This document shows, piece after piece, positions 10,291-64,000 of a stretch of 64,000 nt of DNA (positions are counted from its first letter, which is position 1; every line of letters begins with the position of its first letter). The notes under the pieces were generated by a model. It did no database searches and was not told the DNA's origin. It saw only the letters and a program-made list of their open reading frames with translations. Made by a program: the position numbers and the translations under genes. The stretch is from Escherichia phage AV125: the sequence record OR352955.1. One strand, given 5' to 3'.

Positions 10291-10306
10291 ATAAAGAGGA
10301 TCTATA

Positions 10307-10786: not shown

Positions 10787-10791
10787 TAAAT

Positions 10792-10814
10792 AAAGGGCAG
10801 AAATGCCCTTTTTA
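10792..10814 (+). terminator. Rho-independent terminator after tube gene
   Basis: Stem AAAGGGCA / TGCCCTTT with loop GAAA, followed by TTTAT. Confidence 0.55.
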
Positions 10815-10831
10815 TCATTAGAGAGGAAAAT

Positions 10832-11580: not shown

Positions 11581-11600
11581 TCCAACACGAGGAACATACT

Positions 11601-49893: not shown

Positions 49894-50457
49894 CTAGATA
49901 GTTTTACTGTGATCGTGACAGTGTAATAAATGATGTATAGACCGTTGAGGATTTGTTTGACCTAATCTGTAAATGTGAAACAGATACATTCCCCGCATCA
50001 ATCCTAACCTTTTTCCTTTTTCATGTAAAGTGCGAGAGAAAATTAGGTCGAATTGGATAGATTTTTCTTCGAAAGGAATTTCATTCCACAATGATTTTCT
50101 AAAAAGCAAAAAGAAACCTGCCAGAGGTGTTCCGAAAGGAACTTCTTCAACACTCACTTTATGATATTCTCTTGCAATCTTAGCATATTCTATATGGTTT
50201 AGAATATTTGGATCATCGTTAATTTGGTTAGAGAAAAGCTGATAACCACTACCTAACCTGTTACAAGTTGCACCTATTACATCAAAAGGCGGGTTTGACA
50301 TAATAAGCTCTTCAAGCATAGATGGTTGATCAGGCAGGAGGAACATTGTATCGGTATCTCTTAAGCACACCCAACTATCATCTGGAAGAACGGCAATAGC
50401 TTCATTGATAGCCTTGCCGATATTTCCTGTCAGATAGGGAGTAATATAATAAATCAT
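49894..50457 (-). CDS. Putative glycosyltransferase (GT-A-like, DxD motif CLRDTDTMF)
   Basis: N-terminal YITPY..GNIGKAINEAI then DTD motif; fourth member of a glycosyltransferase cluster. Confidence 0.3.
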   Translation of the reverse strand: MIYYITPYLTGNIGKAINEAIAVLPDDSWVCLRDTDTMFLLPDQPSMLEELIMSNPPFDVIGATCNRLGSGYQLFSNQINDDPNILNHIEYAKIAREYHKVSVEEVPFGTPLAGFFLLFRKSLWNEIPFEEKSIQFDLIFSRTLHEKGKRLGLMRGMYLFHIYRLGQTNPQRSIHHLLHCHDHSKTI

Positions 50458-50473
50458 TCTCCCCTCCGTTATA

Positions 50474-50665
50474 TTAACTGTCAGCTACAATCCCACGTTT
50501 AATCATTTCTTGTTGGATTTGGATGACACGATCTCGTGCTTCCATATATTCTTTAAAAGATTCTTGGAGATGGTCACGAGCTACATCCCGTAGTTTAATC
50601 AGCTTGTCGTTTGTCACTTCTTGAAGAGAGATCTCGCCAGTTTCATTGGTCCCAAGCGTTTTCAT
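50474..50665 (-). CDS. Hypothetical small protein
   Basis: 63-aa helical, charged ORF. Confidence 0.3.
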   Translation of the reverse strand: MKTLGTNETGEISLQEVTNDKLIKLRDVARDHLQESFKEYMEARDRVIQIQQEMIKRGIVADS

Positions 50666-50873
50666 TTACAACCTCCTTAATAGCTACTGCACAGTTCTTA
50701 CAAATACATTGACCTTTGTTCTTAGAAATTTCAATGTAAGGTTCATTTTCGTTTTCTCCGCGTCGTGAATCGTATATTACAGTATTGAAGCAGACAACGC
50801 AAATGTTTTTAATAACAACATATTTTTGCACTTTTTGTTTAGTGCGAAAATTTACTTCAATGACTTCTCCCAT
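50643..50873 (-). CDS. Small zinc-ribbon protein
   Basis: Track ORF trimmed to the ATG at 50873 that overlaps the upstream stop; Cys pairs CVVC...CICKNC. Confidence 0.3.
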   Translation of the reverse strand: MGEVIEVNFRTKQKVQKYVVIKNICVVCFNTVIYDSRRGENENEPYIEISKNKGQCICKNCAVAIKEVVNENAWDQ

Positions 50874-51157
50874 CAGTGAATCTCCCCTAAAATGTTGTTT
50901 TGAGACATTACTGCGGAGCATTCTACAGCATCATGAGTCCTTGCAAAACGCTCCCACAGCACAGCATCTACTTTAAGAACCATACAAGGATAAATACTGT
51001 CGTTGATCATATCAATGCTATATTTATCTACATCCTTTTCATCTTCCATAAACAAAGTAGCGTATGCTTCCAAATGTTTACGGGTGTAGTATACGTCCTC
51101 TTCGGTAAGACCGACAACCAGGTAACTTGCTACAACAACAGTATTATCTTCTTGCAT
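50873..51157 (-). CDS. Hypothetical protein
   Basis: Track ORF trimmed to the ATG at 51157, the first start after the upstream gene's stop, with AAGGGGAG RBS. Confidence 0.3.
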   Translation of the reverse strand: MQEDNTVVVASYLVVGLTEEDVYYTRKHLEAYATLFMEDEKDVDKYSIDMINDSIYPCMVLKVDAVLWERFARTHDAVECSAVMSQNNILGEIH

Positions 51158-51158
51158 T

Positions 51159-51680
51159 TTAACTCCCCTTTGGTAGATAGAAACCATGCACTTTATCTCG
51201 ATAAACAAGACGCATATCACGCTCCCAGTGTGTCCTTATATTCCGTTTCTTGAAGTATAGAGCACCTTTAGTAACATCTAAAACAGACCGCAATTCAGGA
51301 AAATGTTTCTCTAAATAAAGTAAACGCTCCGCTATTGCTTTTGCTTCCTGCCACTTATCTTTCTCTGTCACGTTAAAAGTTTTCGCATATGAGAATTGCC
51401 CTTTCTGGAACAAGACTCCCTTGACTGTGTTAGGGAAGTAGGCATCATTTCTTCTGTTGATTACCACATTCCCAACGGCATTCATTCCTTTTTTACCCAG
51501 ACCGCGACCTTCTGCGTAAATTGCACAAGCTAATAGAATTTTATCATTATATTGCTTTGTACATTTGTGAACTACTTTAGCGGTTTTTACGTTTGCAGCT
51601 TCGGCTTTCGCCACAACAGGTGTAAATGTAAAAGCAGTTAAGGATAGTAACGCAACTGTTACAAAGTTTTTTATCAGCAA
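51159..51680 (-). CDS. Secreted cell-wall hydrolase, SleB/CwlJ-like (candidate endolysin)
   Basis: N-terminal signal peptide (LIKNFVTVALLSLTAFTFTPVVAKA); Hydrolase_2-like core LLACAIYAEGRGLGKKGMNAVGNVVINRR; TTG start 8 nt after AAGGAGG; own promoter. Confidence 0.5.
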   Translation of the reverse strand: MLIKNFVTVALLSLTAFTFTPVVAKAEAANVKTAKVVHKCTKQYNDKILLACAIYAEGRGLGKKGMNAVGNVVINRRNDAYFPNTVKGVLFQKGQFSYAKTFNVTEKDKWQEAKAIAERLLYLEKHFPELRSVLDVTKGALYFKKRNIRTHWERDMRLVYRDKVHGFYLPKGS

Positions 51681-51712
51681 ATTTTGCCTCCTTTTTAAGT
51701 TAACGAACTTCT

Positions 51713-51741
51713 AGTATAACACGATAGAGGCTTTATTGCAA
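51713..51741 (-). promoter_or_regulatory. sigma70-like promoter (TTGCAA-17-TATACT) on minus strand upstream of the SleB-like gene
   Basis: Minus-strand -35 TTGCAA (plus 51736-51741), 17-nt spacer, -10 TATACT (plus 51713-51718). Confidence 0.45.
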
Positions 51742-51762
51742 GAGGGGGGACTTCTCCCCCTC
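51742..51762 (-). terminator. Terminator hairpin after TerD gene
   Basis: Stem GAGGGGG / CCCCCTC with a 7-nt loop, immediately downstream of the TerD stop and abutting the promoter. Confidence 0.4.
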
Positions 51763-51780
51763 AAAATCATTTGTTAATTA

Positions 51781-52383
51781 TTATGGACATTCATACCATT
51801 CTTTTTTACCACCGAAGGCCATCACCACATCGCAAATATCCAGACCAGCTTTACCTACACCATATGCTTTCAGCTTCCATTCTCCATCTTCACGAACCAG
51901 GGAAGCCACGTGGCAGATTGTGTTGCCAGCTACTTCAGGAGCCAGGAAGTCAAAATCCAGAATTTCCACATTGCGCTCGGAGTCGAAGATTTTAAGCATA
52001 CCTTCAGAAGCATGACCAAAACGTTTCAGACCTGTATCATCATCAATGGTCAGAACAAAGGCAATCTCTTGTGCATCAGGAGAGATTTTAGCCAGAGTAA
52101 TATCAATCTGCTCCATGCTGCCAGTTCCATCACGAACATCGTCACCAGCGAAGGTAGAACGTTCAGGATCAAACTTGTTAGCATAGCAAACCAGATGACG
52201 TGCAGACAGCATTTCAGGATTGCCAGCGGCATTGTGACGACAAACCAGTGCACTTACATCCAGATCCAGTTTAGAATCAGATTTCCAAGAGAATTCCAGA
52301 CGCAGTTCTTTCAGAGCCGGAGCAACTTTCTTCAGGGAAATTTTTTCGCTAGAACCTTTTTTCAGGGAAATTTTATCAGTCAT
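51781..52383 (-). CDS. terD: TerD-domain protein (tellurite-resistance TerD family)
   Basis: N-terminal ISLKK repeats; core TFAGDDVRDGTGSMEQIDITLAKISPDAQEIAFVLTIDD matches the TerD GDxxxG..GDDE..I...L pattern; about 200 aa. Confidence 0.6.
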   Translation of the reverse strand: MTDKISLKKGSSEKISLKKVAPALKELRLEFSWKSDSKLDLDVSALVCRHNAAGNPEMLSARHLVCYANKFDPERSTFAGDDVRDGTGSMEQIDITLAKISPDAQEIAFVLTIDDDTGLKRFGHASEGMLKIFDSERNVEILDFDFLAPEVAGNTICHVASLVREDGEWKLKAYGVGKAGLDICDVVMAFGGKKEWYECP

Positions 52384-52398
52384 CTTTTGTCTCCTCTA

Positions 52399-52668
52399 TT
52401 ATTTAAGTGTAATACCAGTTACAGTCAATTCTACTTCCAAAAGCTTAGATGTGTTTTGGATTGATACTAATTGTGCATGATGGTTTAGTTCTACAGCAGA
52501 ATAATCATTTTCCCCATCATCTACTTTTAAATAAACAATGATTTCACTAAGGTCTAAACCATTTTCGTCAAATGCATTTTCATAGACGAAAGTATCTCCT
52601 ACATCCAAATCTTTGATGGTAAGGCATCGTTTATTTACTTTTTGCTCATCAATTTCGAAGTTTAACAC
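52399..52668 (-). CDS. Small protein, paralog B of a two-member family (precedes TerD)
   Basis: KDLDVGDTFVYENAFDENGLD...LEVELTVTGITLK aligns with the 53690 ORF (EDLGIGATFMYYDAYEDAGLD...VEVDLEVTNITLK). Confidence 0.35.
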   Translation of the reverse strand: MLNFEIDEQKVNKRCLTIKDLDVGDTFVYENAFDENGLDLSEIIVYLKVDDGENDYSAVELNHHAQLVSIQNTSKLLEVELTVTGITLK

Positions 52669-52897
52669 TTCTTCCTCCTAATGTTATCTCCGGTTTGTAT
52701 ATACGAAGAATTATAACATTTTCATTTTCTTTGTCAACCCATTCTTCATAATCAGGCCATACATGAATCTCTACTCTACTTACAATATCTTCCATTCGCA
52801 CAGTCCCAATGAAATACTCTTTGAGACTGCGCATAATGAAAGCTTCTCTCTCGCGCCAATAATTTTCTATGACTTGAGAGGCAAGCTCGTCGATCAT
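52649..52897 (-). CDS. Hypothetical small protein
   Basis: 82-aa ORF between the vWA gene and paralog B; overlapping coupled starts. Confidence 0.3.
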   Translation of the reverse strand: MIDELASQVIENYWREREAFIMRSLKEYFIGTVRMEDIVSRVEIHVWPDYEEWVDKENENVIILRIYKPEITLGGRSVKLRN

Positions 52898-53688
52898 TTT
52901 TTAGCACCTACTTTAACAACCCACTCTCCGAACTCTTCAGATAAGAGTTTGTCATAAAGCTCTGAATCTGTCAAGTCTAAATCTTTAATGCCAATAAAAC
53001 CAACATTATCATAAGCATTTGCCAGTTCTTTCAGGAAGCCAAACTTCTCATTACCAACGCCAACCATGAACCAATAAATAGGTTTATTCTTATTCTCTTC
53101 AATAAGACGACGAACAGCACTAGGATCACCATTCTCACCATCCGTCTGGAAGAATACAACACCAGGGGTAACGTCAGCACCTGGTTCAGACACAGCTACA
53201 ACCTTTTCACGCTCTACAGATACTGTTTCAGTTTTACCAAGCAGACGATTAAAGAAGCCTTTCTTTGGAGCCTCCTCTTGTACCACTTGTTTAGTGGTAA
53301 TATATTTGGTAACAGTGCCAAAATACTCATCGTAGATATCTGCCATTACAGGGGCGTAATTTGTTCCACCTCCGATACGAACATTGCGCATACATTTACC
53401 AACATAGTCATCGTAAACGTCTGCTGTTGCTGGAGTAAGCTCTTGGGAACTCGTATTGAAGGCCCACATATCAATTTGTTGATTATCGTCGAACAGCATA
53501 CCAAAAGGAAGCAGTTTACCTACAAAATCACTCACTACCCCACTAGAATATAGACCATGCATACTACCAGAAATATCTAGAGCACATGCTACACGAAGAA
53601 CAATCTTACCTTCATTCAGGTTCTTATTCTTTTTCAGAGAGAAAGCAAGGTTTTCTTGACGTTTTTTCAGGCTGATTTTCTCGGACAT
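52894..53688 (-). CDS. von Willebrand factor A (vWA) domain protein with TerD-like N-terminal leader
   Basis: MIDAS motif DISGSM in LRVACALDISGSMHG; N-terminus MSEKISLKKRQENLAFSLKK parallels the TerD N-terminus MTDKISLKKGSSEKISLKK. Confidence 0.55.
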   Translation of the reverse strand: MSEKISLKKRQENLAFSLKKNKNLNEGKIVLRVACALDISGSMHGLYSSGVVSDFVGKLLPFGMLFDDNQQIDMWAFNTSSQELTPATADVYDDYVGKCMRNVRIGGGTNYAPVMADIYDEYFGTVTKYITTKQVVQEEAPKKGFFNRLLGKTETVSVEREKVVAVSEPGADVTPGVVFFQTDGENGDPSAVRRLIEENKNKPIYWFMVGVGNEKFGFLKELANAYDNVGFIGIKDLDLTDSELYDKLLSEEFGEWVVKVGAKK

Positions 53689-53689
53689 A

Positions 53690-53986
53690 TTATTTCTCCT
53701 TCTTAAGTGTAATATTGGTAACTTCTAAATCTACTTCCACCATATTTGTATCTGGCGGGATGCAATGAGTATAGCCTCGTTGTGCTAGTGATCCATTAAT
53801 ACAGATCGCACTGTTTGTGGAATTTTTAATGAACACCAAGTTACGGTAGGTATCCAACCCTGCGTCTTCATAGGCATCATAATACATGAATGTGGCCCCT
53901 ATGCCAAGATCTTCGAAAGCAATAGGTAAATCCTGACACTTTTCTTCTTGAATATTGAATCTAAACACGCATACCTCCTCTACCAA
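53690..53986 (-). CDS. Small protein, paralog A (precedes the vWA gene)
   Basis: See paralog B; 98 aa. Confidence 0.35.
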   Translation of the reverse strand: MVEEVCVFRFNIQEEKCQDLPIAFEDLGIGATFMYYDAYEDAGLDTYRNLVFIKNSTNSAICINGSLAQRGYTHCIPPDTNMVEVDLEVTNITLKKEK

Positions 53987-54524
53987 TTTTGAAGCCCAAA
54001 TCGTAAGCTTCTTTAGTGATCTTTTGCAACTCGCTTATAGGAAGTGTTACAAGAGGATCATCTTCTTCAATTTCCATCTTGTCATCTTCTGTTTCAATGA
54101 GAGTATTATGCACTTTATGATAAGGGTTGTCAACACGTTTAAACTTATTCTTTTCTGTGCTGAAGAAACAATCTGGATCTTCTTCACCATCACCCCAACC
54201 TTGATTAGGATCTCTGTCAGATTGTTCTGTAGGGATCTCACCTGTAAAGTACTCTTCCAGCACCATAGCGATGCCGTCCCTTGGATTTGAGGAATGCATC
54301 AAATCACAAACCTTACTCCAATCCATAGCCCAGTCGAACCGTTCACGAACGCCATTTTCATCCTCTTTTCCAGAGAAAACACAACCATAACTATCATAGT
54401 TGCCATACATCTCTTCAATAACAACACCGTCCTTCAAAAGAAAGAGGTAGCAAGGTGATCCGTCGAAAGAAGTAGAAAGGGCAGCTTTGCCCGATTCTTT
54501 GCACAAAAAGCTAAAACAACCCAT
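53961..54524 (-). CDS. Hypothetical acidic protein
   Basis: 187-aa ORF rich in Asp/Glu (EEDPDCFF, ETEDDKMEIEEDDP). Confidence 0.3.
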   Translation of the reverse strand: MGCFSFLCKESGKAALSTSFDGSPCYLFLLKDGVVIEEMYGNYDSYGCVFSGKEDENGVRERFDWAMDWSKVCDLMHSSNPRDGIAMVLEEYFTGEIPTEQSDRDPNQGWGDGEEDPDCFFSTEKNKFKRVDNPYHKVHNTLIETEDDKMEIEEDDPLVTLPISELQKITKEAYDLGFKIGRGGMRV

Positions 54525-54727
54525 TACAAACCCTCCTTCAGATTATCAAGAGCTACAGTGGTTTCACAAAATTCTCCATAAGCTTTATGATGTTCCAGAA
54601 AAGCTTCGGGTCCACCCCAATCATTGTCTTGTGTATTCCAGCCATCAATAAAAGCATCTTCAATGATTGTGATCAGTTCTTGTCGGGTTAACTGGATAAT
54701 ATTAGGGTCGTTATCGTAGTTAAACAT
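54524..54727 (-). CDS. Hypothetical small acidic protein
   Basis: 67-aa ORF; ATG with GAGGAGGAAG RBS. Confidence 0.3.
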   Translation of the reverse strand: MFNYDNDPNIIQLTRQELITIIEDAFIDGWNTQDNDWGGPEAFLEHHKAYGEFCETTVALDNLKEGL

Positions 54728-54893
54728 CCTCTTCCTCCTCTAAAATATGGAACCCGTAATTACAATAGTCCTGAAAGGTTTCGTGTGCAAGATCTTCTAT
54801 ATCCTCTTGAGACATATCATCTTCAATTTCGATATCCACAACCTCATTGCATCCACACCAAGCAGTTTCAATATTCACTCGTAATATTTTCAT
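54720..54893 (-). CDS. Hypothetical small acidic protein (57 aa; not in ORF track)
   Basis: Manual translation MKILRVNIETAWCGCNEVVDIEIEDDMSQEDIEDLAHETFQDYCNYGFHILEEEEDV; ATG overlaps the upstream stop (TAATG) and follows a GGAGGAGGAG RBS. Confidence 0.25.
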   Translation of the reverse strand: MKILRVNIETAWCGCNEVVDIEIEDDMSQEDIEDLAHETFQDYCNYGFHILEEEEDV

Positions 54894-55090
54894 TACTCCT
54901 CCTCCTCATTGAAGTCAATATCTGCAAGGAGTTCGAATTTACGGAAGTTACGACAACCTTCATAAATATAACAATCACGACAAACTGCTAGAACACTTGG
55001 GGGATATATGCCTCCCATCGGCGCGAATCGTTTTTCGTCATCATAACGGACACCAATGTCCTCATCAATTATATAGATACGGATTCTCAT
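54893..55090 (-). CDS. Hypothetical small protein with acidic C-terminus
   Basis: 65-aa ORF ending ...DIDFNEEEE; start overlaps the TelA stop. Confidence 0.3.
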   Translation of the reverse strand: MRIRIYIIDEDIGVRYDDEKRFAPMGGIYPPSVLAVCRDCYIYEGCRNFRKFELLADIDFNEEEE

Positions 55091-56199
55091 TTACCAAGCC
55101 CTCGTTTCACAGCAGCTACCATCCCGTCTTCCAAAGATTGAACTTCATTAATATAATCAACACGAGCAGCACGGGCTTCCGTATTGATGCGGTTAGTTTC
55201 TTCCAACATCTTAACCAAGTTTTCCTGATCGTGACGCAGAGTTTCAATATCCAACACTTGACGGTTAGCCAGTGCTGCTGCTTCGATCTGATTCTGTGTG
55301 GCAAGATCGCTACCCAGTTTAATTGCCAGGTTAAATTCATCAAGAACGTTATTCTGCGACTCTGCTGCTTTCATTTGACGTAAGCTCTCGATATACATTG
55401 AGAAGTTAGCAGAGTAAGCAGGAATAACATTATTTACTATGTTACGCGCAGATCGCATTAAGCTTGCAGAAACTTTTTGCATACCTTGTACACGCGGTCC
55501 CATTTGGACACACAGTAGGCGCAATGCTTTTAAATCTGCAATACGAATCTCCAGAAGATCCAAAGTATCTCGGATCACTTGTCGCTGTTCTACTGCATCT
55601 TCTGGAAGAGCAGCCAAAGCTTGTTCTTCTTTTTCATAGGTTGCTGTTAGAAGCTGCATATCTCGGTTCAAACTTGCAGCATATTGTCCAATAGCTTGAT
55701 GTAGCTTTTCAAGATATACCAAGGAATCTTCTTCTTTGCGAATATCCATTTGAAGGTTTTTTACCAACTCTTCAATACGGTTATTAACATTATCAAACTC
55801 CCCAAACAGATCTTCTTTCATACCCATAACTTTTTTAATGAGTTTAGTAATACCCTTGCTTTGTTTAATAGAGTTTGGATCAAGTTGTTTTGCCTGTTTA
55901 ATCAAAGCTGTGAGTCGTTCACTCATCTGATCGCCTTGATTACTACGTTGATGTTTTAATACCTCGGCATTCAAGGAACGCAAGGTTGTTCCTGCCTCTG
56001 CCCCAATCTCTTCGATCTCCTGTCGGGTCATAGAAGGCAAAACTGGAACTTCTTGCGGTGCCGCTGGTGCATAAACAGGACTGGCATCTAACACGCTTGG
56101 AGCGAATACAGATTTACTTGCATCTGTTGTTGCAGCAAATACGCTCATTTCAGGTTTCTTCTGACAGCCAGTAGCTGCTTTTAAAAATGGACTTGTCAT
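55087..56199 (-). CDS. telA: TelA-like toxic anion resistance family protein
   Basis: 370 aa, largely helical with long heptad-like segments; size and composition as for TelA/KlaA; lies in a cluster with TerD, vWA and TerC homologs. Confidence 0.5.
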   Translation of the reverse strand: MTSPFLKAATGCQKKPEMSVFAATTDASKSVFAPSVLDASPVYAPAAPQEVPVLPSMTRQEIEEIGAEAGTTLRSLNAEVLKHQRSNQGDQMSERLTALIKQAKQLDPNSIKQSKGITKLIKKVMGMKEDLFGEFDNVNNRIEELVKNLQMDIRKEEDSLVYLEKLHQAIGQYAASLNRDMQLLTATYEKEEQALAALPEDAVEQRQVIRDTLDLLEIRIADLKALRLLCVQMGPRVQGMQKVSASLMRSARNIVNNVIPAYSANFSMYIESLRQMKAAESQNNVLDEFNLAIKLGSDLATQNQIEAAALANRQVLDIETLRHDQENLVKMLEETNRINTEARAARVDYINEVQSLEDGMVAAVKRGLGK

Positions 56200-56786
56200 T
56201 CTTCATTCTCCTCTTCTGCATCTCTTATATATGGTGAAACACCGTACTCTTTAGCTACTTTAACCCAATCGTCCCATTTATACAACCATAATTTTCCTTC
56301 GGTCCCTTCTTTATCTGATTTCAACCACATATTAGGTTGCTTACCTGGGTACATGCGATTAGGTTTACGATTATAACCTCTAACACATCTTGTCGCAAAC
56401 CTATCTACCAGAACAAGAACATATTTATATTCGTGGTTCAACGGCTCTTTGGAAGTGGCTTTAGGATTAGCCCCTAACTCTGCTGCCAGTTTTTGCCAAT
56501 GAGCACCGTGTCTACTAAACTTACCCATACAACCATCAATAGCATGAGCAATTTCGTGCTTCATTGTATCCACGATCATATCTCTTGTAGAGTTCTTATG
56601 CAAGTGCCAATTTACAACAACAATTTTATCTCGGTAGTTGCACCAACCGAAAGAGTTATTCACTTTGTTTCTAACACAAGCTTTATATCCTGCTTCACGT
56701 AACATGTTGTAGTAAACAGGAAAATCTTCTTTTATTTCCTGCATCACTTCCCACCACAAGAGTTGCAAGTCTCTCTCGGTATACAT
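56196..56786 (-). CDS. SprT-like zinc metalloprotease domain protein
   Basis: HExxH motif in MKHEIAHAIDGCMGKFSRHGAHWQKLAAELG; acidic C-terminal tail. Confidence 0.5.
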   Translation of the reverse strand: MYTERDLQLLWWEVMQEIKEDFPVYYNMLREAGYKACVRNKVNNSFGWCNYRDKIVVVNWHLHKNSTRDMIVDTMKHEIAHAIDGCMGKFSRHGAHWQKLAAELGANPKATSKEPLNHEYKYVLVLVDRFATRCVRGYNRKPNRMYPGKQPNMWLKSDKEGTEGKLWLYKWDDWVKVAKEYGVSPYIRDAEEENEE

Positions 56787-56789
56787 AAC

Positions 56790-57383
56790 TTACACCTTAA
56801 AAGTGAAATGCGTGGTCGTGGTTTCAAAATCAGGACCAGATAAACGTGCACTGAAATCTGAAATATTTGTAATTAAAAAGCTTTTATGCATACCTAACAC
56901 AGCTACGCTTTCAATATCTTCTACTAACATTTCAATCATGTTAGAAACATGGCTGAACGTAGAGTTTTGTTTTTTGATGGTGTAGAAAGAAAGATTCCCA
57001 CCTGCTGTATAAGATACCTCTTCAAAATCTTTAATGGTATATTGTGTGCCATCAGTAAAGAAAATGGTAGCTTTATTAGTAGCACGTTTCTTGTTTTTTG
57101 GTCCTTTTTTACGTTTACTGCGAGTAGGCAAACCGTTTGGGAACACCATAGCTACAAATTCTTCAGCAGAAACCTCCTTACCGAAATCATAACCATAAGA
57201 AACAGCGTCTATAAACTCGTCATCTTCATTTTTAAAATAATGGAAATAGGGCCAATTTGAAAGATTATCAAGCATCTTATGCTCGTCCACAGCAGAGAAT
57301 GTATCCCTCAAAGCGCGTGTGATTTGCAAAGCATTAGGCAACCTTTTAACACCTACGATGGAAGTACGAATAGAAATTGTCAT
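56790..57383 (-). CDS. Hypothetical protein
   Basis: 197-aa ORF with a basic stretch (RSKRKKGPKNKKRATNK). Confidence 0.3.
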   Translation of the reverse strand: MTISIRTSIVGVKRLPNALQITRALRDTFSAVDEHKMLDNLSNWPYFHYFKNEDDEFIDAVSYGYDFGKEVSAEEFVAMVFPNGLPTRSKRKKGPKNKKRATNKATIFFTDGTQYTIKDFEEVSYTAGGNLSFYTIKKQNSTFSHVSNMIEMLVEDIESVAVLGMHKSFLITNISDFSARLSGPDFETTTTHFTFKV

Positions 57384-57397
57384 TGTTTTTCTCCTTA

Positions 57398-57835
57398 TTA
57401 ACGTCGCTTGCTACGAGATGAACTCTTTTTACTTAAAGGGCTATTGTAAGATTTACGAGTTGTATAGCTACTATTTGTTTTAAAAGTTTGTCTCGGCTTT
57501 TCATAAGTTTTTATCTCTTGTTTAGGCTTACTATAAAAATTAGTTTTCGGTTTAGGTGTATTATAATGCTTATTAATAATCGTTCTGTTATCGTTATAAT
57601 CCCCACTGCTACGATTACTACCGCCACTCATCATATGCCCTAACAACATACCTGTAGCAAACTCACCAACACCGCTACTACTAGAACCGCCACCATTGTT
57701 GATAATAGTTGTATCTCCGTCAGATCCTTGTTGAGCGTATTGTTGAGGAGGTTGTTGGTATTGTGCAGGATTTGTTTCATCCTCGCAAGCTGTTAAAAAG
57801 ATACAACCAATTAAAATCAGGGCTAGTTTTTTCAT
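57398..57835 (-). CDS. Lipoprotein (lipobox LTAC), Gly/Ser-rich
   Basis: Track ORF trimmed to the ATG at 57835; signal peptide MKKLALILIGCIFLTAC with lipobox Cys; overlaps the 3' end of the upstream TM-protein gene in another frame. Confidence 0.4.
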   Translation of the reverse strand: MKKLALILIGCIFLTACEDETNPAQYQQPPQQYAQQGSDGDTTIINNGGGSSSSGVGEFATGMLLGHMMSGGSNRSSGDYNDNRTIINKHYNTPKPKTNFYSKPKQEIKTYEKPRQTFKTNSSYTTRKSYNSPLSKKSSSRSKRR

Positions 57836-58022
57836 ATTTGCTTTCCTCGTTTTGGCTATTAATACATCTGTGTTTGAAATCTCCAGAGAAGCAATAAAGT
57901 TGCTCTCCATCTCGGTATAAACTCACTTTACTGCCGTTGATTACGCTTGTCAATACAAAAATTACAACAAACAACCCTATTGCAAAACAAATATTTTCAA
58001 ACACAACCAACAAGTATTTCAT
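57777..58022 (-). CDS. Small membrane protein with N-terminal TM helix
   Basis: 81-aa ORF; hydrophobic segment LVVFENICFAIGLFVVIFVLTSVI; ATG with GAGGT RBS. Confidence 0.3.
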   Translation of the reverse strand: MKYLLVVFENICFAIGLFVVIFVLTSVINGSKVSLYRDGEQLYCFSGDFKHRCINSQNEESKYEKTSPDFNWLYLFNSLRG

Positions 58023-58369
58023 TTTAAAAATACCTCATCATCAGTTTCATTATCCCAGAAGAACAAGTCCCAACCATTCGGATCATTCCATTTAGCTGCT
58101 GGAGAAGTCCATATTTGCTCGATATCAATATTCAAAACTTCACCGTTTCGTTTTGAAACAGCTTTAGTTAATTCCCAACGGGATACAGGCTCCACTTCCC
58201 CTGAACCACTCCCACAACAAGCTACCACATTAGGAGGCAAATTAATTGGATCTTTGGTCACGATCATAACGCTTACCCCAGGGTAAACTTTTGAAAGATA
58301 ATCTAAAACGTAATCCACATCACCAGATAAATCCCAAACAAGTTCTTGAATTTCATCAAAATTACTCAT
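58019..58369 (-). CDS. Hypothetical protein
   Basis: 116-aa ORF; start after a terminator hairpin. Confidence 0.3.
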   Translation of the reverse strand: MSNFDEIQELVWDLSGDVDYVLDYLSKVYPGVSVMIVTKDPINLPPNVVACCGSGSGEVEPVSRWELTKAVSKRNGEVLNIDIEQIWTSPAAKWNDPNGWDLFFWDNETDDEVFLK

Positions 58370-58387
58370 AAGTCTCTCCTATAAAAT

Positions 58388-58405
58388 AGCCTCCCGAAGG
58401 AGGCT
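58388..58405 (-). terminator. Terminator hairpin after TerC gene
   Basis: Stem AGCCTCC / GGAGGCT with loop CGAA, followed on the minus strand by ATTTTAT. Confidence 0.5.
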
Positions 58406-58411
58406 CATTTA

Positions 58412-59386
58412 TTAAACAGTAGCTTCTTCTTTTTCAGGGAAGATAAAGCTTGCAATAACACCAAGAGATAATGTGCCTAGAACAATCATCAGACTTACGT
58501 TAGGGGAAATATCATGCGGGAGGAATGACCACTTGGCATGAAGTGTTTCACCGAACGGGTGATACATAAGTTTAGCACCAACAAACACCAGAACCACAGC
58601 AACAGCTTTCTCTAAGTGAACCAGATATTTCACAGCTACACTTAACACAAAGAAAAGTGCACGTAAACCAAGAACAGCCATCAGCATTGCAGAATAAACT
58701 AGCAGAGGTTCTTGTGTCACACCGATCACAGCCGGAACTGAATCAAAAGAGAAGACAATATCTGTAAGCTCAATAACAAACACACAAAGAAGAGCAGGAG
58801 TTGCATATTTAATACCATTCTTAATGGTGATGAACTTTTCACCATCCAGTGCATTGTGCACAGGCAGAACTTTACCTACTAAACGAACAGCCCAATGTTT
58901 AGAGTAATCAATATCCTCTTCTTCGTCACCACCTTTGATGATAGCCACGGCAGACCAAGCTACAATCAAACCGAACAACACTTGGACCGACCAATGAAGG
59001 TTAAACAAAGCGGTCCCTGCTGCAACAAAAATACCTCGGAAGACAATGGCTCCTGCAATCCCCCAAAGTAGAATCTTATGTTGGAGATGTGTGCTCTTAA
59101 TTCCAAAGCTTGCAAAAATTGCCATGAACACCATTAGGTTATCTACAGAAAGACTCTTTTCCAACACATAGCCACTTAGGAAAAGCGCGGCAAACTCTTT
59201 ACCATGTTCTACCCAAATGAATGCGTAATACCCTAAAGCTAAAGCAATCCAAAAAACAGACCAAAGCAAAGCAGATTTAATTCCAATTTCTTTATTCTCT
59301 TTATGACCAAAGAAATCGATACCAATAGACAATGCTAAAATACCAACTAAAACAACTACATCAATAATTGGGAAACCGAGTTGCAT
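58412..59386 (-). CDS. terC: TerC-family integral membrane protein
   Basis: 324 aa with multiple hydrophobic helices throughout; size and topology consistent with the TerC family; in the Ter-like cluster. Confidence 0.45.
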   Translation of the reverse strand: MQLGFPIIDVVVLVGILALSIGIDFFGHKENKEIGIKSALLWSVFWIALALGYYAFIWVEHGKEFAALFLSGYVLEKSLSVDNLMVFMAIFASFGIKSTHLQHKILLWGIAGAIVFRGIFVAAGTALFNLHWSVQVLFGLIVAWSAVAIIKGGDEEEDIDYSKHWAVRLVGKVLPVHNALDGEKFITIKNGIKYATPALLCVFVIELTDIVFSFDSVPAVIGVTQEPLLVYSAMLMAVLGLRALFFVLSVAVKYLVHLEKAVAVVLVFVGAKLMYHPFGETLHAKWSFLPHDISPNVSLMIVLGTLSLGVIASFIFPEKEEATV

Positions 59387-59403
59387 TCTTTTCTCCTCTC
59401 TTT

Positions 59404-59422
59404 GCGGGGAACTATTCCCCGC
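59404..59422 (-). other. GC-rich hairpin in intergenic region (possible terminator or processing site)
   Basis: Stem GCGGGGA / TCCCCGC with a 5-nt loop, between the small membrane protein gene and the TerC RBS; no clear U-tract. Confidence 0.3.
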
Positions 59423-59465
59423 TTCATGTGATATATCTTACTCTTTTTAAGAACTATGTCAACAC

Positions 59466-59687
59466 TTATTTTGTTGAATGAGAGGAAAAGATTCCTCGTA
59501 ATACCGCCAAAATAAACGAAACACAAACCACGGTCCAGAAGGTTACTGGGACAGTGATATCTGCATGACCCATAACTTCAGCAACATAGTTGTAAGCCAG
59601 CAACAGTAACCAAGCTGGAATCAAACTAAGCATAAAAGCAATAACAAAAAAGCTTACCACTGCAACAATACCTGCAAAAACACCCAT
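59466..59687 (-). CDS. Small membrane protein (two TM helices)
   Basis: 73-aa ORF with two hydrophobic segments; immediately upstream of TerC. Confidence 0.3.
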   Translation of the reverse strand: MGVFAGIVAVVSFFVIAFMLSLIPAWLLLLAYNYVAEVMGHADITVPVTFWTVVCVSFILAVLRGIFSSHSTK

Positions 59688-59699
59688 ACTAATCTCCTC

Positions 59700-60173
59700 T
59701 TAAAGTTTATAAATAGTCACATCGTGGCCTGTTTTTACTAAAGTTTCTTCAATCATCACTTGGATGATAGCCCAATTACCTCCGGCATGTCCCGCTCCAA
59801 TCATAGGTAAACCGATCTTACATTTTTGGTCACGGAGAAGCAAATCATTAGCCATAGCTATTAGTGCATCGTAAAGTGCATCATAGTCCAACTGACGACC
59901 TTTAGCATTGTATCCGTAACGGTATTGCCCGTATAGATTATATACCAAAGGGTCTGATTGTTCGTCTGGCACCCCTAAACTAAAAGAACCTAACTTACTT
60001 TGATCACCAGCCATTGTGTCTAAATCTGCCGCATATGCATAAGGGAATGCTCGTTTAATTTGCGGAGCAATTCCTGCTCCCATATTACACATACAATTGC
60101 AACAATGAGCAATAACAGTTACTTCACCTGCTTTAGCGGCATCAATAAGATTACCTGTTTTCATTTTAAGCAT
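59700..60173 (-). CDS. Macro-domain-like protein (putative ADP-ribose/nucleotide-binding)
   Basis: Track ORF trimmed to the ATG at 60173 after AAGGAG. Segments VIAHCCNCMCNMGAGIAPQIKRAF and KIGLPMIGAGHAGGNW parallel the macro-domain NAAN..GGGV..AI and AFPAISTGVYG blocks (divergent). Confidence 0.3.
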   Translation of the reverse strand: MLKMKTGNLIDAAKAGEVTVIAHCCNCMCNMGAGIAPQIKRAFPYAYAADLDTMAGDQSKLGSFSLGVPDEQSDPLVYNLYGQYRYGYNAKGRQLDYDALYDALIAMANDLLLRDQKCKIGLPMIGAGHAGGNWAIIQVMIEETLVKTGHDVTIYKL

Positions 60174-60186
60174 TTTTAGCTCCTTA

Positions 60187-61014
60187 TTACAGAATGTGTT
60201 GTTTTGTGTAACGATCCAAGAATTCAAAGTTTTCAGCATACTTTGAAATTCGGTTGTAACCTTCTCCCAAACATCCGAAGAAAAGTTGCTCTACATAGTA
60301 GTGTGGCAATTGGCTAAGAATGATTTTGAAGTCTTCGTGATTTTGGCCCATAAGATACTTAATAGGACGAACAAGACACTGTGCATCACGTTCTTCATTA
60401 ATCATTTTAACAAACGCTTCTGGTGTATTGATGTAGTTAAAATTCAGTTTAGCTTCAGTATCTGCTTGATTACCTTCATATTTTGCAAAATACAAGAAGT
60501 AAACATCATTTTTAACTTGATTTTCATCAAGAATCTCAATCAGTTTGTCTTCATGAGTTCCGGTGATATTTACATCATCAATGAACACAAGCTTCTTATC
60601 ACCCCAGAATTCTTTGTTGCAGTAGAATGTATCCCCATCAATAAGTTTCTTACGACTAGCTTTATCCAAGAAACCATAATCGTTGATATAGCTAACTTTA
60701 CGATGAATAATATCCAGTTCTGCTGAACGACCTTGATCATATTGTGCTTGCAACATATTAAAGTAATTAATAAAATGATCTGTCATCATTGTTGCAGCAT
60801 TGTGCACATGGTTATAAGGAGAAGGGATGATAACAAATTGTTCCCCAATATGTTTCATTGCCACTTGAGCAAAAAACTGAAGTGCCAATTCTTTACCCAT
60901 ACGACGCGCAGCTTGGTTACTACCAAATTTCAATTTTGAATAGTCTTTGATATCAAAAGTAGCAGTTTCCAGGTCATCAAATTTATTTGCAAAAATTTGA
61001 GTTTGATTACGCAT
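60187..61014 (-). CDS. Phosphoribosyltransferase (type I PRTase fold)
   Basis: PRPP-binding motif KLVFIDDVNITGTHEDK (hhhhDDhhtTGxT). Confidence 0.55.
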   Translation of the reverse strand: MRNQTQIFANKFDDLETATFDIKDYSKLKFGSNQAARRMGKELALQFFAQVAMKHIGEQFVIIPSPYNHVHNAATMMTDHFINYFNMLQAQYDQGRSAELDIIHRKVSYINDYGFLDKASRKKLIDGDTFYCNKEFWGDKKLVFIDDVNITGTHEDKLIEILDENQVKNDVYFLYFAKYEGNQADTEAKLNFNYINTPEAFVKMINEERDAQCLVRPIKYLMGQNHEDFKIILSQLPHYYVEQLFFGCLGEGYNRISKYAENFEFLDRYTKQHIL

Positions 61015-61663
61015 TTACAATTTCTCCTCTTTTAAGTTTCTCTAGTAAGTCGTTAGGGTTCTTAATATGACAGAAGTTAATCCCTATGTCAACACATTTA
61101 CCATCAAATTCTTCGCTGTCCCCAACATGTAAAATCTCTTCAGCCTTCAAAGGAATGCTTGAATATGTGGCGGTCCTAACAAAGAATCTAGGATCTGGTT
61201 TACATAACAGATGTTCGTCTGAAAAATGCATAAATTCAAAACAATTCCAACTGTCGAACATACAAGCACGACGCAAAATATCCCCAGATATAAAATTAGT
61301 ATTGCTTTTAATACTAAGATCATATTTACCAGACAAGTATAGCAAACAAACTGGCAAATCTAAAGCGATATGTGGAGGAAATTTAAGAAACCATTGCTCA
61401 CACTCAAAACGCATTTGTGCAGATTCTACAGGGGTTAAACCTATCTTTCTTCCCAACATATTCCATGCATATGCTACACCTTCTGCACACCCATTTAGTG
61501 CAGCATTATCCATAATTTCTTTGGCATCTTTATATGCTTCTTTTGCCGCACGTTCAGACATTCTACCATATGTAGCAATAGTGTGCGTACGTGCATCTGC
61601 ATAGTTTTGATTGGCAGAAATAAGAGTATTCCATACATCAAAAGAAATATGTTTTATTGTCAT
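61007..61663 (-). CDS. HAD-superfamily hydrolase (phosphatase-like)
   Basis: Motif I-like ISFDVWNTL (DxYGT variant), motif III KPDP, motif IV HVGDS. Track ORF begins at a TTG (61684); the ATG at 61663 follows the upstream stop and a GGTGGG RBS. Confidence 0.5.
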   Translation of the reverse strand: MTIKHISFDVWNTLISANQNYADARTHTIATYGRMSERAAKEAYKDAKEIMDNAALNGCAEGVAYAWNMLGRKIGLTPVESAQMRFECEQWFLKFPPHIALDLPVCLLYLSGKYDLSIKSNTNFISGDILRRACMFDSWNCFEFMHFSDEHLLCKPDPRFFVRTATYSSIPLKAEEILHVGDSEEFDGKCVDIGINFCHIKNPNDLLEKLKRGEIVNA

Positions 61664-61664
61664 A

Positions 61665-62270
61665 CTAGGCCCACCACGCATCAAGATTTAAGTTACTGTC
61701 TACCACAACTTGTTCTATGTGGTAGCCTTTTATCTGTATCCCACTGTTCAAGAGCATATCATACGCTTCATTGAAACGCAACTTATCTTCTGCGGAATAT
61801 AAGCGAGCATTATAAAATCGGTAATCAATTTCTTCAGCATTAGAAGAAATACGGAAGAAGTTTGTTTCTACTTCAGGATCACTTGCTGAAGTTTTAATGT
61901 GAACTTCTCCGTAATTTTCTTTGCTTAGATCCATGAAAAGAACACAGGCAACATGTTTGAACATTCGTTCTAGTTTGTAACGAACAACATTGAAACCTGC
62001 ATTCTCAAGTTTTTCTACACATTGCAACATTAACGTAGTGTCGAGATCGCTTTGATACTTTGTTAACATACGATCACGTTGAGACTTTGTATCCCGATGT
62101 AAATCAATTGTTGTGCATTTGGCACCAATGATCTTAGCTGCTTTCATCAACTCTTCAGAACTAACGTTAGATAAAGTAAGATGAAAATGGGCTTTCCACA
62201 CTTTTTTAGCAGGGACACCAAAAGATTTATCCCCACTATTCGGCATGTTGACTACTACACTATGTTGCAT
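61665..62270 (-). CDS. Hypothetical protein (weak 2H-phosphoesterase-like H-x-T-x motif)
   Basis: 201-aa ORF with HFHLTL near the N-terminus and a second, imperfect HIKTS; assignment tentative. Confidence 0.25.
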   Translation of the reverse strand: MQHSVVVNMPNSGDKSFGVPAKKVWKAHFHLTLSNVSSEELMKAAKIIGAKCTTIDLHRDTKSQRDRMLTKYQSDLDTTLMLQCVEKLENAGFNVVRYKLERMFKHVACVLFMDLSKENYGEVHIKTSASDPEVETNFFRISSNAEEIDYRFYNARLYSAEDKLRFNEAYDMLLNSGIQIKGYHIEQVVVDSNLNLDAWWA

Positions 62271-62285
62271 TACTTATCTCCTCAC

Positions 62286-62477
62286 TTAAAATGGAAGTCT
62301 TTGAAGTTCATCTCCTCCGATATCAAGTAATTTAGCAACATCTCGATCAGAAAGCAACTCTTTTCTTTGTAAAATATCCACAAGGGTTGCAAGAATGTCC
62401 TTAACGTCCCGATCACTGTTCTTCAAAAGTTCTCCTGCCGTCCCTACCCTATCTCCTACAGCAAAATATGTAACCAT
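62286..62477 (-). CDS. Hypothetical small protein
   Basis: Track ORF trimmed to the ATG at 62477 preceded by AGGAGG. Confidence 0.3.
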   Translation of the reverse strand: MVTYFAVGDRVGTAGELLKNSDRDVKDILATLVDILQRKELLSDRDVAKLLDIGGDELQRLPF

Positions 62478-62490
62478 AAAACCTCCTACG

Positions 62491-62961
62491 CTAATCTGAT
62501 TGCCAACCACTCGCCGTTTTGGTCCATAATCTTTGATTATCTGACCCTCTGAAAGGTTTTGTGGTTGGATTGTTTATTTCATACTTTCCGTCTACAATAA
62601 TGTCAACAAGATTTTTAATATACAAAGGCACTTCCTCAAAAGTATATCCTGTATACACCATTATATCTTTGCTTGACCCATAAACGTCTCTAACCTTTTC
62701 TATAAGGTTTTTAACATTGTAAATATTCTGCGGATCTAATGGTTCTCCTCCTAAAATTGTTAAACCTTTTACAAACGGTCTTGACAAATCTTTTAAAACT
62801 TGCTCTACATTTTCGTTAGTGAACGGTTTCCCATAAGAATAAGACCAGGCTTTCTGGTTAAAACAGCCACGACAACCGTGGCTACAACCACTAACCCAGA
62901 GGGAGCACCTAACTCCCTCACCATTAATAAGATCTACAGGTTCATATCCTGCAAAATTCAA
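62491..62961 (-). CDS. nrdG: Anaerobic ribonucleotide reductase activating protein (radical SAM)
   Basis: Cluster motif CSHGCRGC (Cx3Cx2C) near the N-terminus, GGEPL motif, 156 aa; start overlaps the NrdD stop (ATGA). Confidence 0.65.
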   Translation of the reverse strand: MNFAGYEPVDLINGEGVRCSLWVSGCSHGCRGCFNQKAWSYSYGKPFTNENVEQVLKDLSRPFVKGLTILGGEPLDPQNIYNVKNLIEKVRDVYGSSKDIMVYTGYTFEEVPLYIKNLVDIIVDGKYEINNPTTKPFRGSDNQRLWTKTASGWQSD

Positions 62962-64000
62962 AGATGTTTCTCCCTTTGCAAAACTTCCTGCATTTTACCT
63001 TTGTTATAAGGCCGTGAATTAGGGGCAGAAAGATACCCTGATACACGTCTAACTACAGAAATAGTTTCTTCTTCATGGTTGCCACAATTAGGACACTCAA
63101 ACCCTTTAGCCGTTGCCTTAAATTCTCCATGAAAACCACACTTAAAGCATTGATCCACGGGCTGATTAATACCAAAATAGTGAATATGTTCATAAGCGTA
63201 GTCTACTAAAGTCTCCAAAGCTTCTAAGTTATTCTTTAAGTTTGGTGTTTCGACATAACTTATGTTACCACCATTGCTAATCTGTGCAAAACCTGCTTCA
63301 TAATCCCATTTTTCAAAAGGATTTGTTACCAACCATACAGGTTGATGAAAAGAATTAGTAAGATAGTCTCTTTCTACCAGACCTGGATATTTTTCATTTA
63401 AAGCTGTTGCAAATTTATAGCACAAGGATTCTGCTGGAGTTCCATAAAGACTAAATGCCAACTTAGATCGTTCTTTAAACACAGCACACACATCTTTCAT
63501 ATGTTGCAGAATGTTTTTACCTAGTTCCTTTTTATCTTTTTCTTCTGGATAAAGGATTTCCAAAGCTTCGGCAAGACCTACATAACCAATACTAATAGAA
63601 GCATAACCACCTTCAAACAAAACACCAATTTCATCATTGGCATTTAAACGCGCTAAAGCCCCTTCCATGAAAAGAATAGGGTTTTCAGATGCTTTGGTAT
63701 GCCTAATACGGTTTACACGTAACATGTGAGCATCGTAGGCTATCTCCATATGTTTATTAAGGAGGTCGGTGAAAGATTCTCCTTTACTTCTCGCTTCCGC
63801 AGCAATCAGAGGTAAATTGATAGAAACTACTCCAAGGTTGAATCGTCCATCATATTTTTCTCCTTGTTCGGTGGCATAGTACGACAAAAAGGAACGACAA
63901 CCCATACTCGTAACAGTACCCTCTGCTGATCCCGTAACTTCTTTGTTCAAAGGAACAGAAATAAAATCTGGATAAATACGATCAGCACAACATGCCAAAG
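62958..64000 (-). CDS. nrdD: Anaerobic ribonucleoside-triphosphate reductase, 5' partial (N-terminus beyond window end)
   Basis: C-terminal zinc ribbon CFKCG...CPNCG followed by glycyl-radical motif RRVSGYL; only the C-terminal 346 aa are in the window. Confidence 0.7.
   Translation of the reverse strand, partial: LACCADRIYPDFISVPLNKEVTGSAEGTVTSMGCRSFLSYYATEQGEKYDGRFNLGVVSINLPLIAAEARSKGESFTDLLNKHMEIAYDAHMLRVNRIRHTKASENPILFMEGALARLNANDEIGVLFEGGYASISIGYVGLAEALEILYPEEKDKKELGKNILQHMKDVCAVFKERSKLAFSLYGTPAESLCYKFATALNEKYPGLVERDYLTNSFHQPVWLVTNPFEKWDYEAGFAQISNGGNISYVETPNLKNNLEALETLVDYAYEHIHYFGINQPVDQCFKCGFHGEFKATAKGFECPNCGNHEEETISVVRRVSGYLSAPNSRPYNKGKMQEVLQREKHL

Follow-up and report, generated by a model that had tools for sequence, protein, structure and literature searches.

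First described more than 30 years ago, Ter genes occur widely in pathogens and on plasmids and have been linked to tellurite, colicin, and phage resistance. Phage Ter systems that include a phosphoribosyltransferase (PRTase) and a HAD-superfamily protein have already been analyzed by Iyer, Anantharaman, Krishnan, Burroughs, and Aravind (Viruses 2021, PMC7824862, section 3.4.10), with Acinetobacter phage vB_AbaM_ME3 (PRTases and HAD) and the Caulobacter jumbo phages (TerD, TerC, TerF, and TelA) as examples and an extension to "certain other related smaller tailed phages". In their model, the PRTase and the HAD protein carry out the biosynthesis of a signal, TerD and TerB are in charge of sensing, TerC mediates the membrane response, and TelA and the vWA domain of TerF form sub-membrane structures; in phages, the authors propose, the system serves to ward off superinfection by other phages. 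An "alx-like ter cluster" has been noted in phi92 and other Justusliebigvirus members (Schwarzer et al. 2012, as cited in PMC11162368), and the literature mentions similar Ter clusters in Klebsiella phage phiKp34 and in Psa phages. Here, we describe the corresponding block of Escherichia phage AV125 (sequence record OR352955.1), located on the minus strand at positions 51781–62270 of the window, i.e., the whole stretch of 64,000 nucleotides that was analyzed. Judged from its sequence, the block is a Phapecoctavirus copy of a phage-adapted Ter system, akin to the ter/tel genes of bacteria and IncHI2 plasmids, and an abbreviated version of the Ter-dependent stress-response system. Its conserved module consists of six genes, coding for a HAD-superfamily hydrolase, a phosphoribosyltransferase of the PRTase_3 family, TerC, TelA, a TerF-type vWA protein, and a TerD-domain protein. 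The initial annotation of this DNA had put the cluster forward as the strongest candidate in the window for an undescribed system. This proved wrong, since phage Ter clusters with PRTase and HAD genes are published and the GenBank records of the genus already annotate TelA-like, TerC, TerD, vWA, SprT-like, phosphoribosyltransferase, and HAD proteins; the cluster is known at the genomic level and does not add a new kind of system.

The region is 99.9% identical to that of Escherichia phage ESCO25, and the carrier belongs to Phapecoctavirus (subfamily Stephanstirmvirinae), being a virulent, phAPEC8-like E. coli myovirus with a genome of ~150 kb. It is matched by 131 phage records, 66 of them at an identity of at least 90%, and in 63 records a single place accounts for at least 80% of the region. 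By comparison, zero DNA matches were obtained in 5,426 complete E. coli genomes and 72,556 plasmids, and a sensitive blastn search of E. coli with the TerC gene found nothing, alx included. An origin from host or plasmid DNA, or an assembly artifact, could be argued from a 13-kb contig labeled "MAG: Proteobacteria bacterium" (metagenome-assembled genome, JAEZZU010000022.1), which bears a 100% identical PRTase gene with the same p201, HAD, and macro genes at its flanks. This contig is almost certainly Phapecoctavirus DNA mis-binned into a bacterial MAG. Such an origin is ruled out by the phage records and the lack of any match in E. coli genomes and plasmids, agrees poorly with the identity of only ~31% between the window TerD and plasmid TerD proteins, and has a vanishingly small probability; the assignment of the region to phage DNA in the initial annotation thus stands.

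The block contains 21 open reading frames (ORFs), every one on the minus strand, in the transcription order p201, HAD, PRTase_3, Macro, s73, TerC, a predicted terminator, p116, s81, p170, p197, SprT-like, TelA, s65, s57, s67, p187, s98, vWA, s82, s89, and TerD. Its limits coincide exactly with ORF ends, the TerD stop at 51781 and the start of the last ORF, p201, at 62270. Upstream of it lie the genes of NrdG and NrdD (class III glycyl-radical/Fe-S ribonucleotide reductase), while a Hydrolase_2 cell-wall hydrolase gene and then four glycosyltransferase-like genes are found beyond TerD, in agreement with the placement given initially. Profile searches, including a Pfam scan of the 20 block ORFs of at least 57 residues, upheld the eight family calls of the initial annotation (TerD, vWA, TelA, SprT-like, TerC, PRTase, HAD, and macro), the HAD call through NCBIfam and the macro call through the PDB and DarG comparisons. 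The gene order upstream of TerC had been only partly right: the PRTase and HAD genes are there, whereas the macro gene lies between TerC and PRTase_3, and the last ORF, p201, is not macro-like.

The delimitation of a six-gene module is based on synteny within Stephanstirmvirinae, linkage in divergent phages, a census of neighboring genes, and co-occurrence at the genome level. The comparison used 24 phage loci anchored on PRTase_3, drawn from GenBank phages, IMG/VR, and metagenomic contigs, and scanned with hidden Markov models (HMMs) built iteratively from the window proteins; a single-sequence IMG/VR scan with the PRTase gave one close relative, and an alignment-based scan was required. In Stephanstirmvirinae, the order HAD-PRTase-Macro-s73-TerC-s81-(p170)-p197-TelA-...-vWA-TerD is kept between Phapecoctavirus and Justusliebigvirus, with 47–82% amino acid identity. 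Outside this subfamily, TerD, vWA, TelA, or TerC occurs within 10 kb, in varied gene orders, in 7 of the 17 divergent phage loci, and three loci (L012, L013, and L026) display tight TerC-x-TerD-x-vWA-HAD-PRTase operons. A Pfam census of 239 ORFs around HAD-PRTase_3 in 16 divergent loci returned TerD 7 times, TerC 6 times, and TelA and vWA-TerF-like 4 times each, together with YqeY (4), RNA_ligase (4), and DUF475 (2). At the genome level, CcrColossus carries a TerD gene ~28 kb from its PRTase gene, and PRTase, TelA, and TerD are all matched in each of seven Brevundimonas phage records. The linkage of HAD-PRTase_3 to Ter genes in phages is recurrent but facultative, and the pair corresponds to the nucleoside-like metabolite branch (PRTase plus HAD phosphoesterase) in the comparative-genomic definition of a Ter system. 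The comparative-genomic link to Ter that had been drawn in the initial annotation proved sound, as PMC7824862 restates the model and Ter families are the top neighbors of HAD-PRTase_3 in the 16 divergent loci. The six core genes are under purifying selection, with ratios of nonsynonymous to synonymous substitution rates (dN/dS) of 0.02–0.15 (0.02–0.09 for PRTase_3 and 0.04–0.13 for TerD).

The PRTase_3 protein (60187–61014) is a ComF-like type I phosphoribosyltransferase (PF15610, E = 6e-42). It carries the phosphoribosyl pyrophosphate (PRPP) loop DDVNITGTHE at residues 146–155 (FIDDVNITGTHE), in which Asp146, Asp147, Thr151, Gly152, Thr153, His154, and Glu155 are invariant in 22 homologs, down to 44% identity; a sequence search for a homolog of solved structure found none. 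The HAD-superfamily hydrolase gene (61007–61684) is translationally coupled to PRTase_3, whose start it overlaps by 8 nucleotides at its end, and it lies immediately upstream of PRTase_3 in all 39 loci (24 of 24 phage loci and 15 of 15 genome loci), where the genome loci come from a pattern-based scan of 100,044 species genomes that reaches close relatives only. The match of its product to the Pfam Hydrolase family is below the cutoff (E = 1.4e-3), several NCBIfam HAD-IA models match (best E = 1.5e-8), and motifs II (SNTNF), III (KPD), and IV (GDSEEFD) are retained throughout the family, as expected of a HAD-superfamily member. In motif I, FDVWNT (residues 15–20), the nucleophile Asp is present and the second Asp of the DxDx(T/V) signature, the general acid/base at position +2, is replaced by Trp. 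This Trp is found in 24 of the 25 phage HAD partners (Tyr in L023) and in 14 of the 15 bacterial ones, the 15th being a truncated hit in which the motif was not found. HAD is also the fastest-evolving core gene, with 47% identity between genera versus 65% for PRTase. In Escherichia phage EF1-1, the HAD protein (gene at 15227–15898) is only 76% identical to that of the window (dS ~3), while the neighboring genes are 99–100% identical, and it shares 93% identity with the HAD of a more distant IMG/VR phage (L002), which indicates an allelic replacement of HAD alone through recombination. In Rhizobiaceae, the pair (~40% identity) lies in isolation, with a Clp-protease-like gene following it, at 9061–11584 in the Sinorhizobium kostiense locus and in eight further loci, including that of plasmid pRL10; it is surrounded there by aminotransferase, LysE, and lactonase genes, with zero Ter genes within 10 kb.

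The remaining four core genes code for the Ter proteins proper. TerC (58412–59386; PF03741, E = 3e-40) is an integral membrane protein of the Alx subfamily; it matches the NCBIfam model TIGR03718 ("TerC/Alx family metal homeostasis membrane protein") with an E-value of 4.5e-95, above the model's cutoff, and has the hydropathy profile of a multi-pass protein, as does the TerC-family (or DUF475) membrane component of a Ter system. TelA (55087–56199; PF05816, E = 2e-33), of the toxic-anion-resistance family, is modeled as an all-α protein built of very long helices, preceded by a disordered stretch of ~55 N-terminal residues. The vWA protein (52894–53688) matches the vWA-TerF-like family (PF10138, E = 1.6e-37), retains an intact metal ion-dependent adhesion site (MIDAS) motif, DISGS, at residues 38–42, and is conserved beside TerD or TelA in nine phage loci; together, TelA and this TerF-type vWA protein correspond to the sub-membrane components of a Ter system. 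Finally, the TerD-domain protein (51781–52383; PF02342, E = 3e-28) aligns along its length to the Klebsiella TerD of structure 2KXT (1.5e-15), a Ca2+-binding protein. Sequence searches found no solved structures for TelA and TerC.

The initial annotation had described a single minus-strand block. A strong predicted intrinsic terminator (58388–58405), made up of a 7-bp stem with 5 GC pairs, a TTCG loop, and a T-rich tail, directly follows the TerC stop codon; a predicted sigma-70 promoter (52710–52737; TTGACA-16-TATAAT with a TG extension, 12/12) precedes s89 and TerD, and a consensus promoter match also precedes TerC (59435–59462). Because of these signals, all of them pattern or consensus matches, the block is probably organized in at least two transcription units and not in one operon.

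The explanation that we prefer for the presence of this module, and which we hold tentatively, is a conditioning of the infected cell's envelope by the phage, which would exclude competitors and keep the membrane intact until lysis, under the control of a small molecule. It draws on the published Ter model and on the plasmid ter operons, which confer phage inhibition (Phi) and colicin resistance (PacB) (Whelan 1995, as cited in PMC8386662). In this scenario, PRTase_3 would join PRPP to a base, giving a ribonucleoside 5'-phosphate-like compound, and HAD would process this product further. During infection, TerC and three small membrane proteins (s73, s81, and p170) would be inserted into the inner membrane, and TelA, vWA, and TerD would assemble beneath this membrane as a divalent-metal-dependent complex. 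Following the PMC7824862 model, TerD-type domains may bind the HAD-PRTase_3 molecule, which would then tune or load the Ter complex. The envelope would thereby resist further insults, such as superinfection by other phages, colicins, and membrane or metal stress, until the phage lysis program fires, an outcome equivalent to the plasmid Phi and PacB phenotypes. A bolder version, in which the HAD(DxW)-PRTase_3 pair is a self-contained generator of a nucleoside-like messenger that switches on the TerD/vWA/TelA/TerC membrane complex and so seals the infected cell against rival phages and colicins, strikes us as improbable; if true, it would amount to a phage-encoded exclusion system under the control of a small-molecule signal and would show what is sensed by the bacterial Ter system and what the system brings about.

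Several observations weigh against the reading of the block as an integrated Ter system. TerB, ATP-grasp, TRSP, and CitE/HpcH-like components had no Pfam match in the 20 scanned ORFs, and a literature search turned up no experiments on a phage-borne Ter cluster. The acidic Ca2+-site motif of TerD is partly degenerate (GDDVRDGTGSME), with GDD-VRDGTGSME versus GDNRTGEGDGDDE, and the TelA model is without a specific structural analog, displaying no likeness to PspA/ESCRT-III above generic helical bundles. A Trp in place of Asp+2 is unusual in a phosphatase, so that HAD may depart from simple phosphatase chemistry and the phosphatase step is not secure. The predicted terminator and promoters would split the block and leave its co-regulation unproven. 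Lastly, in Rhizobium, Sinorhizobium, and Ensifer, HAD-PRTase_3 has no Ter gene nearby and is surrounded by ordinary genes of metabolism, and the Rhizobium phages that carry the pair are absent from the organisms among the TelA/TerD tblastn matches listed; because of these solitary occurrences, the pair can work independently of Ter.

Such occurrences lend themselves to a reading without any single system, in which the block is a mosaic of accessory genes and HAD-PRTase_3 a free-standing nucleotide/cofactor-salvage or base-scavenging unit, for instance in PRPP- or NAD (nicotinamide adenine dinucleotide)-related metabolism or in modified-nucleoside synthesis. The pair is alone in the Rhizobiaceae genomes and in 10 of the 24 phage loci, the HAD allele has been exchanged independently of its neighbors, and the predicted terminator parts the TerC unit from the TelA/vWA/TerD unit. 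NAD-salvage genes are also found nearby, namely NadM-type NMNAT/NUDIX in RHph_TM2_3B and PnuC with AAA_28 in L013, and Nampt/NadM genes are close to Ter genes in CcrBL9 and phiPsa315. However, the Ter families are the top recurrent neighbors, while each NAD-salvage family appears once among the 239 ORFs; TerC, TerD, and vWA form tight operons with HAD-PRTase, in rearranged orders, in phages that are unrelated, and phages with a distant PRTase gene still encode TerD or TelA elsewhere. We give this mosaic reading little probability. Membership of the pair in NAD salvage was considered separately and rejected, as the window PRTase belongs to PF15610 and not to NAPRTase/NAMPT, and the single occurrences of NAD-salvage families compare with 4–7 for the Ter families.

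The match of TerC to a metal homeostasis model also fits a module in which TerC moves Mn2+ or another divalent cation across the inner membrane and TerD and vWA act as Ca2+/Mg2+-binding regulators, without exclusion of competitors as its purpose, the metal supply of the infected cell being adjusted for phage enzymes or against metal or oxidative toxicity. The contribution of K. pneumoniae terC to tellurite and zinc resistance, as reported in PMC12054061, the alignment of TerD to 2KXT, the intact vWA MIDAS, and the position of the cluster beside ribonucleotide reductase genes are in line with this view. Against it, no yybP-ykoY (Mn2+) riboswitch or other metal-sensing leader was found upstream of TerC by an Rfam search of window positions 50000–64000 at E-values up to 1, the neighboring ribonucleotide reductase is a class III glycyl-radical/Fe-S and not an Mn enzyme, the phage TerD has partly lost its Ca2+ motif, and TelA and the HAD-PRTase pair are left without a role. 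We consider this metal-homeostasis reading unlikely.

A gene for a Hydrolase_2 cell-wall hydrolase (51159–51680; Pfam, E = 2e-17) adjoins TerD; its product has a hydrophobic N-terminal segment, signal- or anchor-like, and may be an exported or signal-arrest-release (SAR)-type endolysin. The adjacency to TerD is also kept in Justusliebigvirus, and a Hydrolase_2 gene lies near HAD-PRTase_3 in one divergent phage locus. This neighborhood brings to mind a role of the Ter proteins in counter-defense or lysis timing, where they would stabilize the energized inner membrane against host abortive infection (Abi) effectors that depolarize or perforate it and would prevent the premature release of the exported hydrolase. 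In addition to the hydrolase, several small membrane proteins flank TerC, SPFH/Band_7 is found near HAD-PRTase_3 in divergent loci, once, like Hydrolase_2, and Jug phages have terD beside a pspA-like gene (PMC12880540). The case is nevertheless wholly circumstantial: TerD and the endolysin gene adjoin each other in one phage subfamily only, TelA does not resemble PspA/ESCRT-III more than it does generic helical bundles, and Ter proteins are not known to counter any Abi system. We regard this possibility as doubtful and retain envelope conditioning as the working explanation.

Small genes are interspersed with the core. The 73-residue s73 (59466–59687; phrog_16065), with two transmembrane segments predicted from hydropathy, is conserved beside TerC in Stephanstirmvirinae and was found in six loci. 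The 81-residue s81 (57777–58022), with one N-terminal transmembrane segment, is present in the same six loci, being kept in Justusliebigvirus, and the overlapping p170, a lipoprotein-signal protein, in all of them except L002; the s81/p170 pair spans 57398–58022. Both are lineage-specific membrane accessories by hydropathy, and p170 has a likely start MKKLALILIGCIFLTAC at 57835 and the lipobox LTAC. Their overlapped architecture recalls i-spanin/o-spanin pairs. The small acidic protein s89 (52399–52668), immediately upstream of TerD, and its paralog s98 (53690–53986), upstream of vWA, both match phrog_11278 (7e-45 and 3.6e-48). The junctions at which these genes meet TerD and vWA are repeated: the segment 52354–52439, which covers the s89 3' end, the ribosome-binding site, and the first ~10 codons of TerD, has its counterpart at 53659–53739, with the s98 3' end, the ribosome-binding site, and the first ~10 codons of vWA. 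The two DNA repeats (families D1 and D3) are 76% identical, TerD and vWA share the N-terminal peptide M-x-x-K-ISLKK, and TerD has a further internal copy (52324–52365). They look like the result of a segmental duplication or like the relic of a fused TerF (TerD+vWA) ancestor.

The initial annotation took the whole set as one system; three genes, macro, SprT-like, and p201, are separate passengers that share the accessory region with the six-gene core. The SprT-like Zn-metalloprotease (56196–56786; PF10263, E = 4e-9) has the HExxH zincin motif HEIAH at residues 77–81, and its gene is translationally coupled to TelA in the window through a 4-nucleotide overlap between its stop and the TelA start. 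The gene occurs only in EF1-1, L002, and L016; it was missing from Justusliebigvirus and from the remaining phage Ter loci that were examined, so it is an accessory gene of Phapecoctavirus-type loci, outside the conserved module.

The macro gene (59700–60239), between TerC and PRTase_3, codes for a predicted macrodomain ADP-ribosyl hydrolase of the DarG/TARG1/SCO6735 class. The longest ORF overlaps the PRTase 3' end, and the true start is probably Met23 at 60173, for a product of ~157 residues. The protein scores 22.8 bits with the Pfam Macro family (PF01661; cutoff 22) and matches the PDB macrodomain 5e3b (1.3e-12), TARG1, and DarG (5m31); the PADLOC DarG HMM (2.6e-10) and DarG HMMs in general support the class. 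Its Lys113 (NAKGRQ) aligns with a Lys of SCO6735 and is presumably equivalent to the catalytic Lys of DarG/TARG1. Homologs are found in 2,983 phage records, most of them without Ter genes and one of them that of the T4 tk.4 locus (37% identity, 3e-13). T4 Tk.4, named AdfM, has been experimentally shown to protect T4 from DarTG2 (bioRxiv 10.1101/2025.11.20.689424), and analogous orphan DarG-like antitoxin mimics are described in ICP1, T-even phages, and, as a DarG2-like protein, a chimallivirus (PMC11481870, PMC13309987). The window protein resembles AdfM in being a stand-alone macrodomain with DarG HMM matches; it differs in the position of its gene, between PRTase_3 and TerC, and its activity is predicted from homology. 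It is likely an independent anti-DarT2 factor that does not belong to the Ter module. In Pseudomonas phage phiPsa315 (Otagovirus; 1726–6318 and 8977–12449), a close macro homolog (1.6e-33) directly follows a nicotinamide phosphoribosyltransferase gene, near a ribose-phosphate pyrophosphokinase gene (an NAD-reconstitution-like pair), at ~3 kb from a TelA-vWA-...-TerD cluster. In CcrBL9, NadM/Nampt genes are located ~9 kb from the Ter operon.

At the upstream end of the block and outside the Ter module, p201 (61665–62270) codes for a 201-residue protein that matched no Pfam family and is not macro-like. AF2 (pLDDT 81.5) models it as a tandem ferredoxin-like fold, for which structural comparison gave no informative match. 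His28, His30, Thr32, Glu122, His124, and Lys126 are invariant, an enzyme-like set, and the relatives of the protein are solely uncharacterized viral proteins. None of the four Justusliebigvirus-type loci examined has the gene, and in Rheinheimera Barba phages it is found by itself. Two PADLOC "AbiEi" HMMs match p201 nearly end to end (4.7e-13 and 4.4e-12), with no match to Pfam AbiEi, and its structural relatives are found in Acinetobacter phage ME3, Sinorhizobium phage phiM12, and the giant viruses Klosneuvirus, Bodo saltans virus, and Fadolivirus.

Two further observations concern the surroundings of the block and the records that match it. One of the four glycosyltransferase-like genes, at 49202–49885, has a weak match to a TET-associated glycosyltransferase family (PF20691, E = 1.8e-3, below the cutoff), which may hint at DNA base hypermodification in phage AV125. 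Among the matching records, Campylobacter phage B15 and Acinetobacter phage vB_AbaM_ABPW7 share 96.6–96.7% DNA identity with the window, the TelA of Pseudomonas phage PsgM04F is 90% identical to the window TelA, and proteins of Campylobacter phages C3 and A110a are 65–81% identical to those of the window and Justusliebigvirus-like; the host labels of these five records look doubtful.

Since phAPEC8, ESCO13, phi92, and relatives in the BASEL collection are easily grown, the six-gene version offers a convenient minimal model of the Ter system. It also matters for therapy-candidate phages, in which automated annotation flags "tellurite resistance": recognizing a phage-specific module, rather than a transferable host resistance island, aids safety assessment.

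When compared with the classical terZABCDEF operon (IncHI2 plasmid R478, E. coli O157, and Klebsiella) and with kilA/telA/telB of RK2, the AV125 block shares the TerD domain, the TerC family, the vWA domain of TerF, and TelA. It departs from terZABCDEF in having a single TerD, a split vWA, a TerC of the Alx subfamily, ~31% TerD identity, and zero DNA similarity; the TerZ, TerA, TerB, and TerE paralogs and TelB/KlaA were not detected by Pfam among the 20 scanned ORFs. The block was accordingly not assigned to the classical operon. With the phage Ter systems of Iyer et al., it has in common the full component set (TerD, TerC, TerF-type vWA, TelA, and PRTase plus HAD) and virulent tailed-phage carriers, and a compact TelA-vWA-TerC-TerD operon was confirmed in CcrBL9; tblastn with the window proteins did not find the ME3 proteins, which are too divergent. 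Unlike the jumbo phages, AV125 is a ~150-kb myovirus whose cluster has many interspersed small lineage-specific ORFs, a predicted split by a terminator, and one PRTase family (PRTase_3). The cluster of phi92 and other Justusliebigvirus members is orthologous to the block and is arranged as HAD-PRTase-Macro-s73-TerC-...-TelA-...-vWA-TerD between NrdDG and the cell-wall hydrolase/glycosyltransferase genes, with the 47–82% identity given above, to which Phapecoctavirus adds SprT-like, p201, p116, s57, and a second phrog_11278 copy with s82. Relative to these descriptions, the present analysis delimits a six-gene core, establishes the strict HAD-PRTase_3 pairing and the non-canonical DxW motif of HAD, brings the macro protein into the AdfM/DarG class, and points to a likely split of the block into two units.

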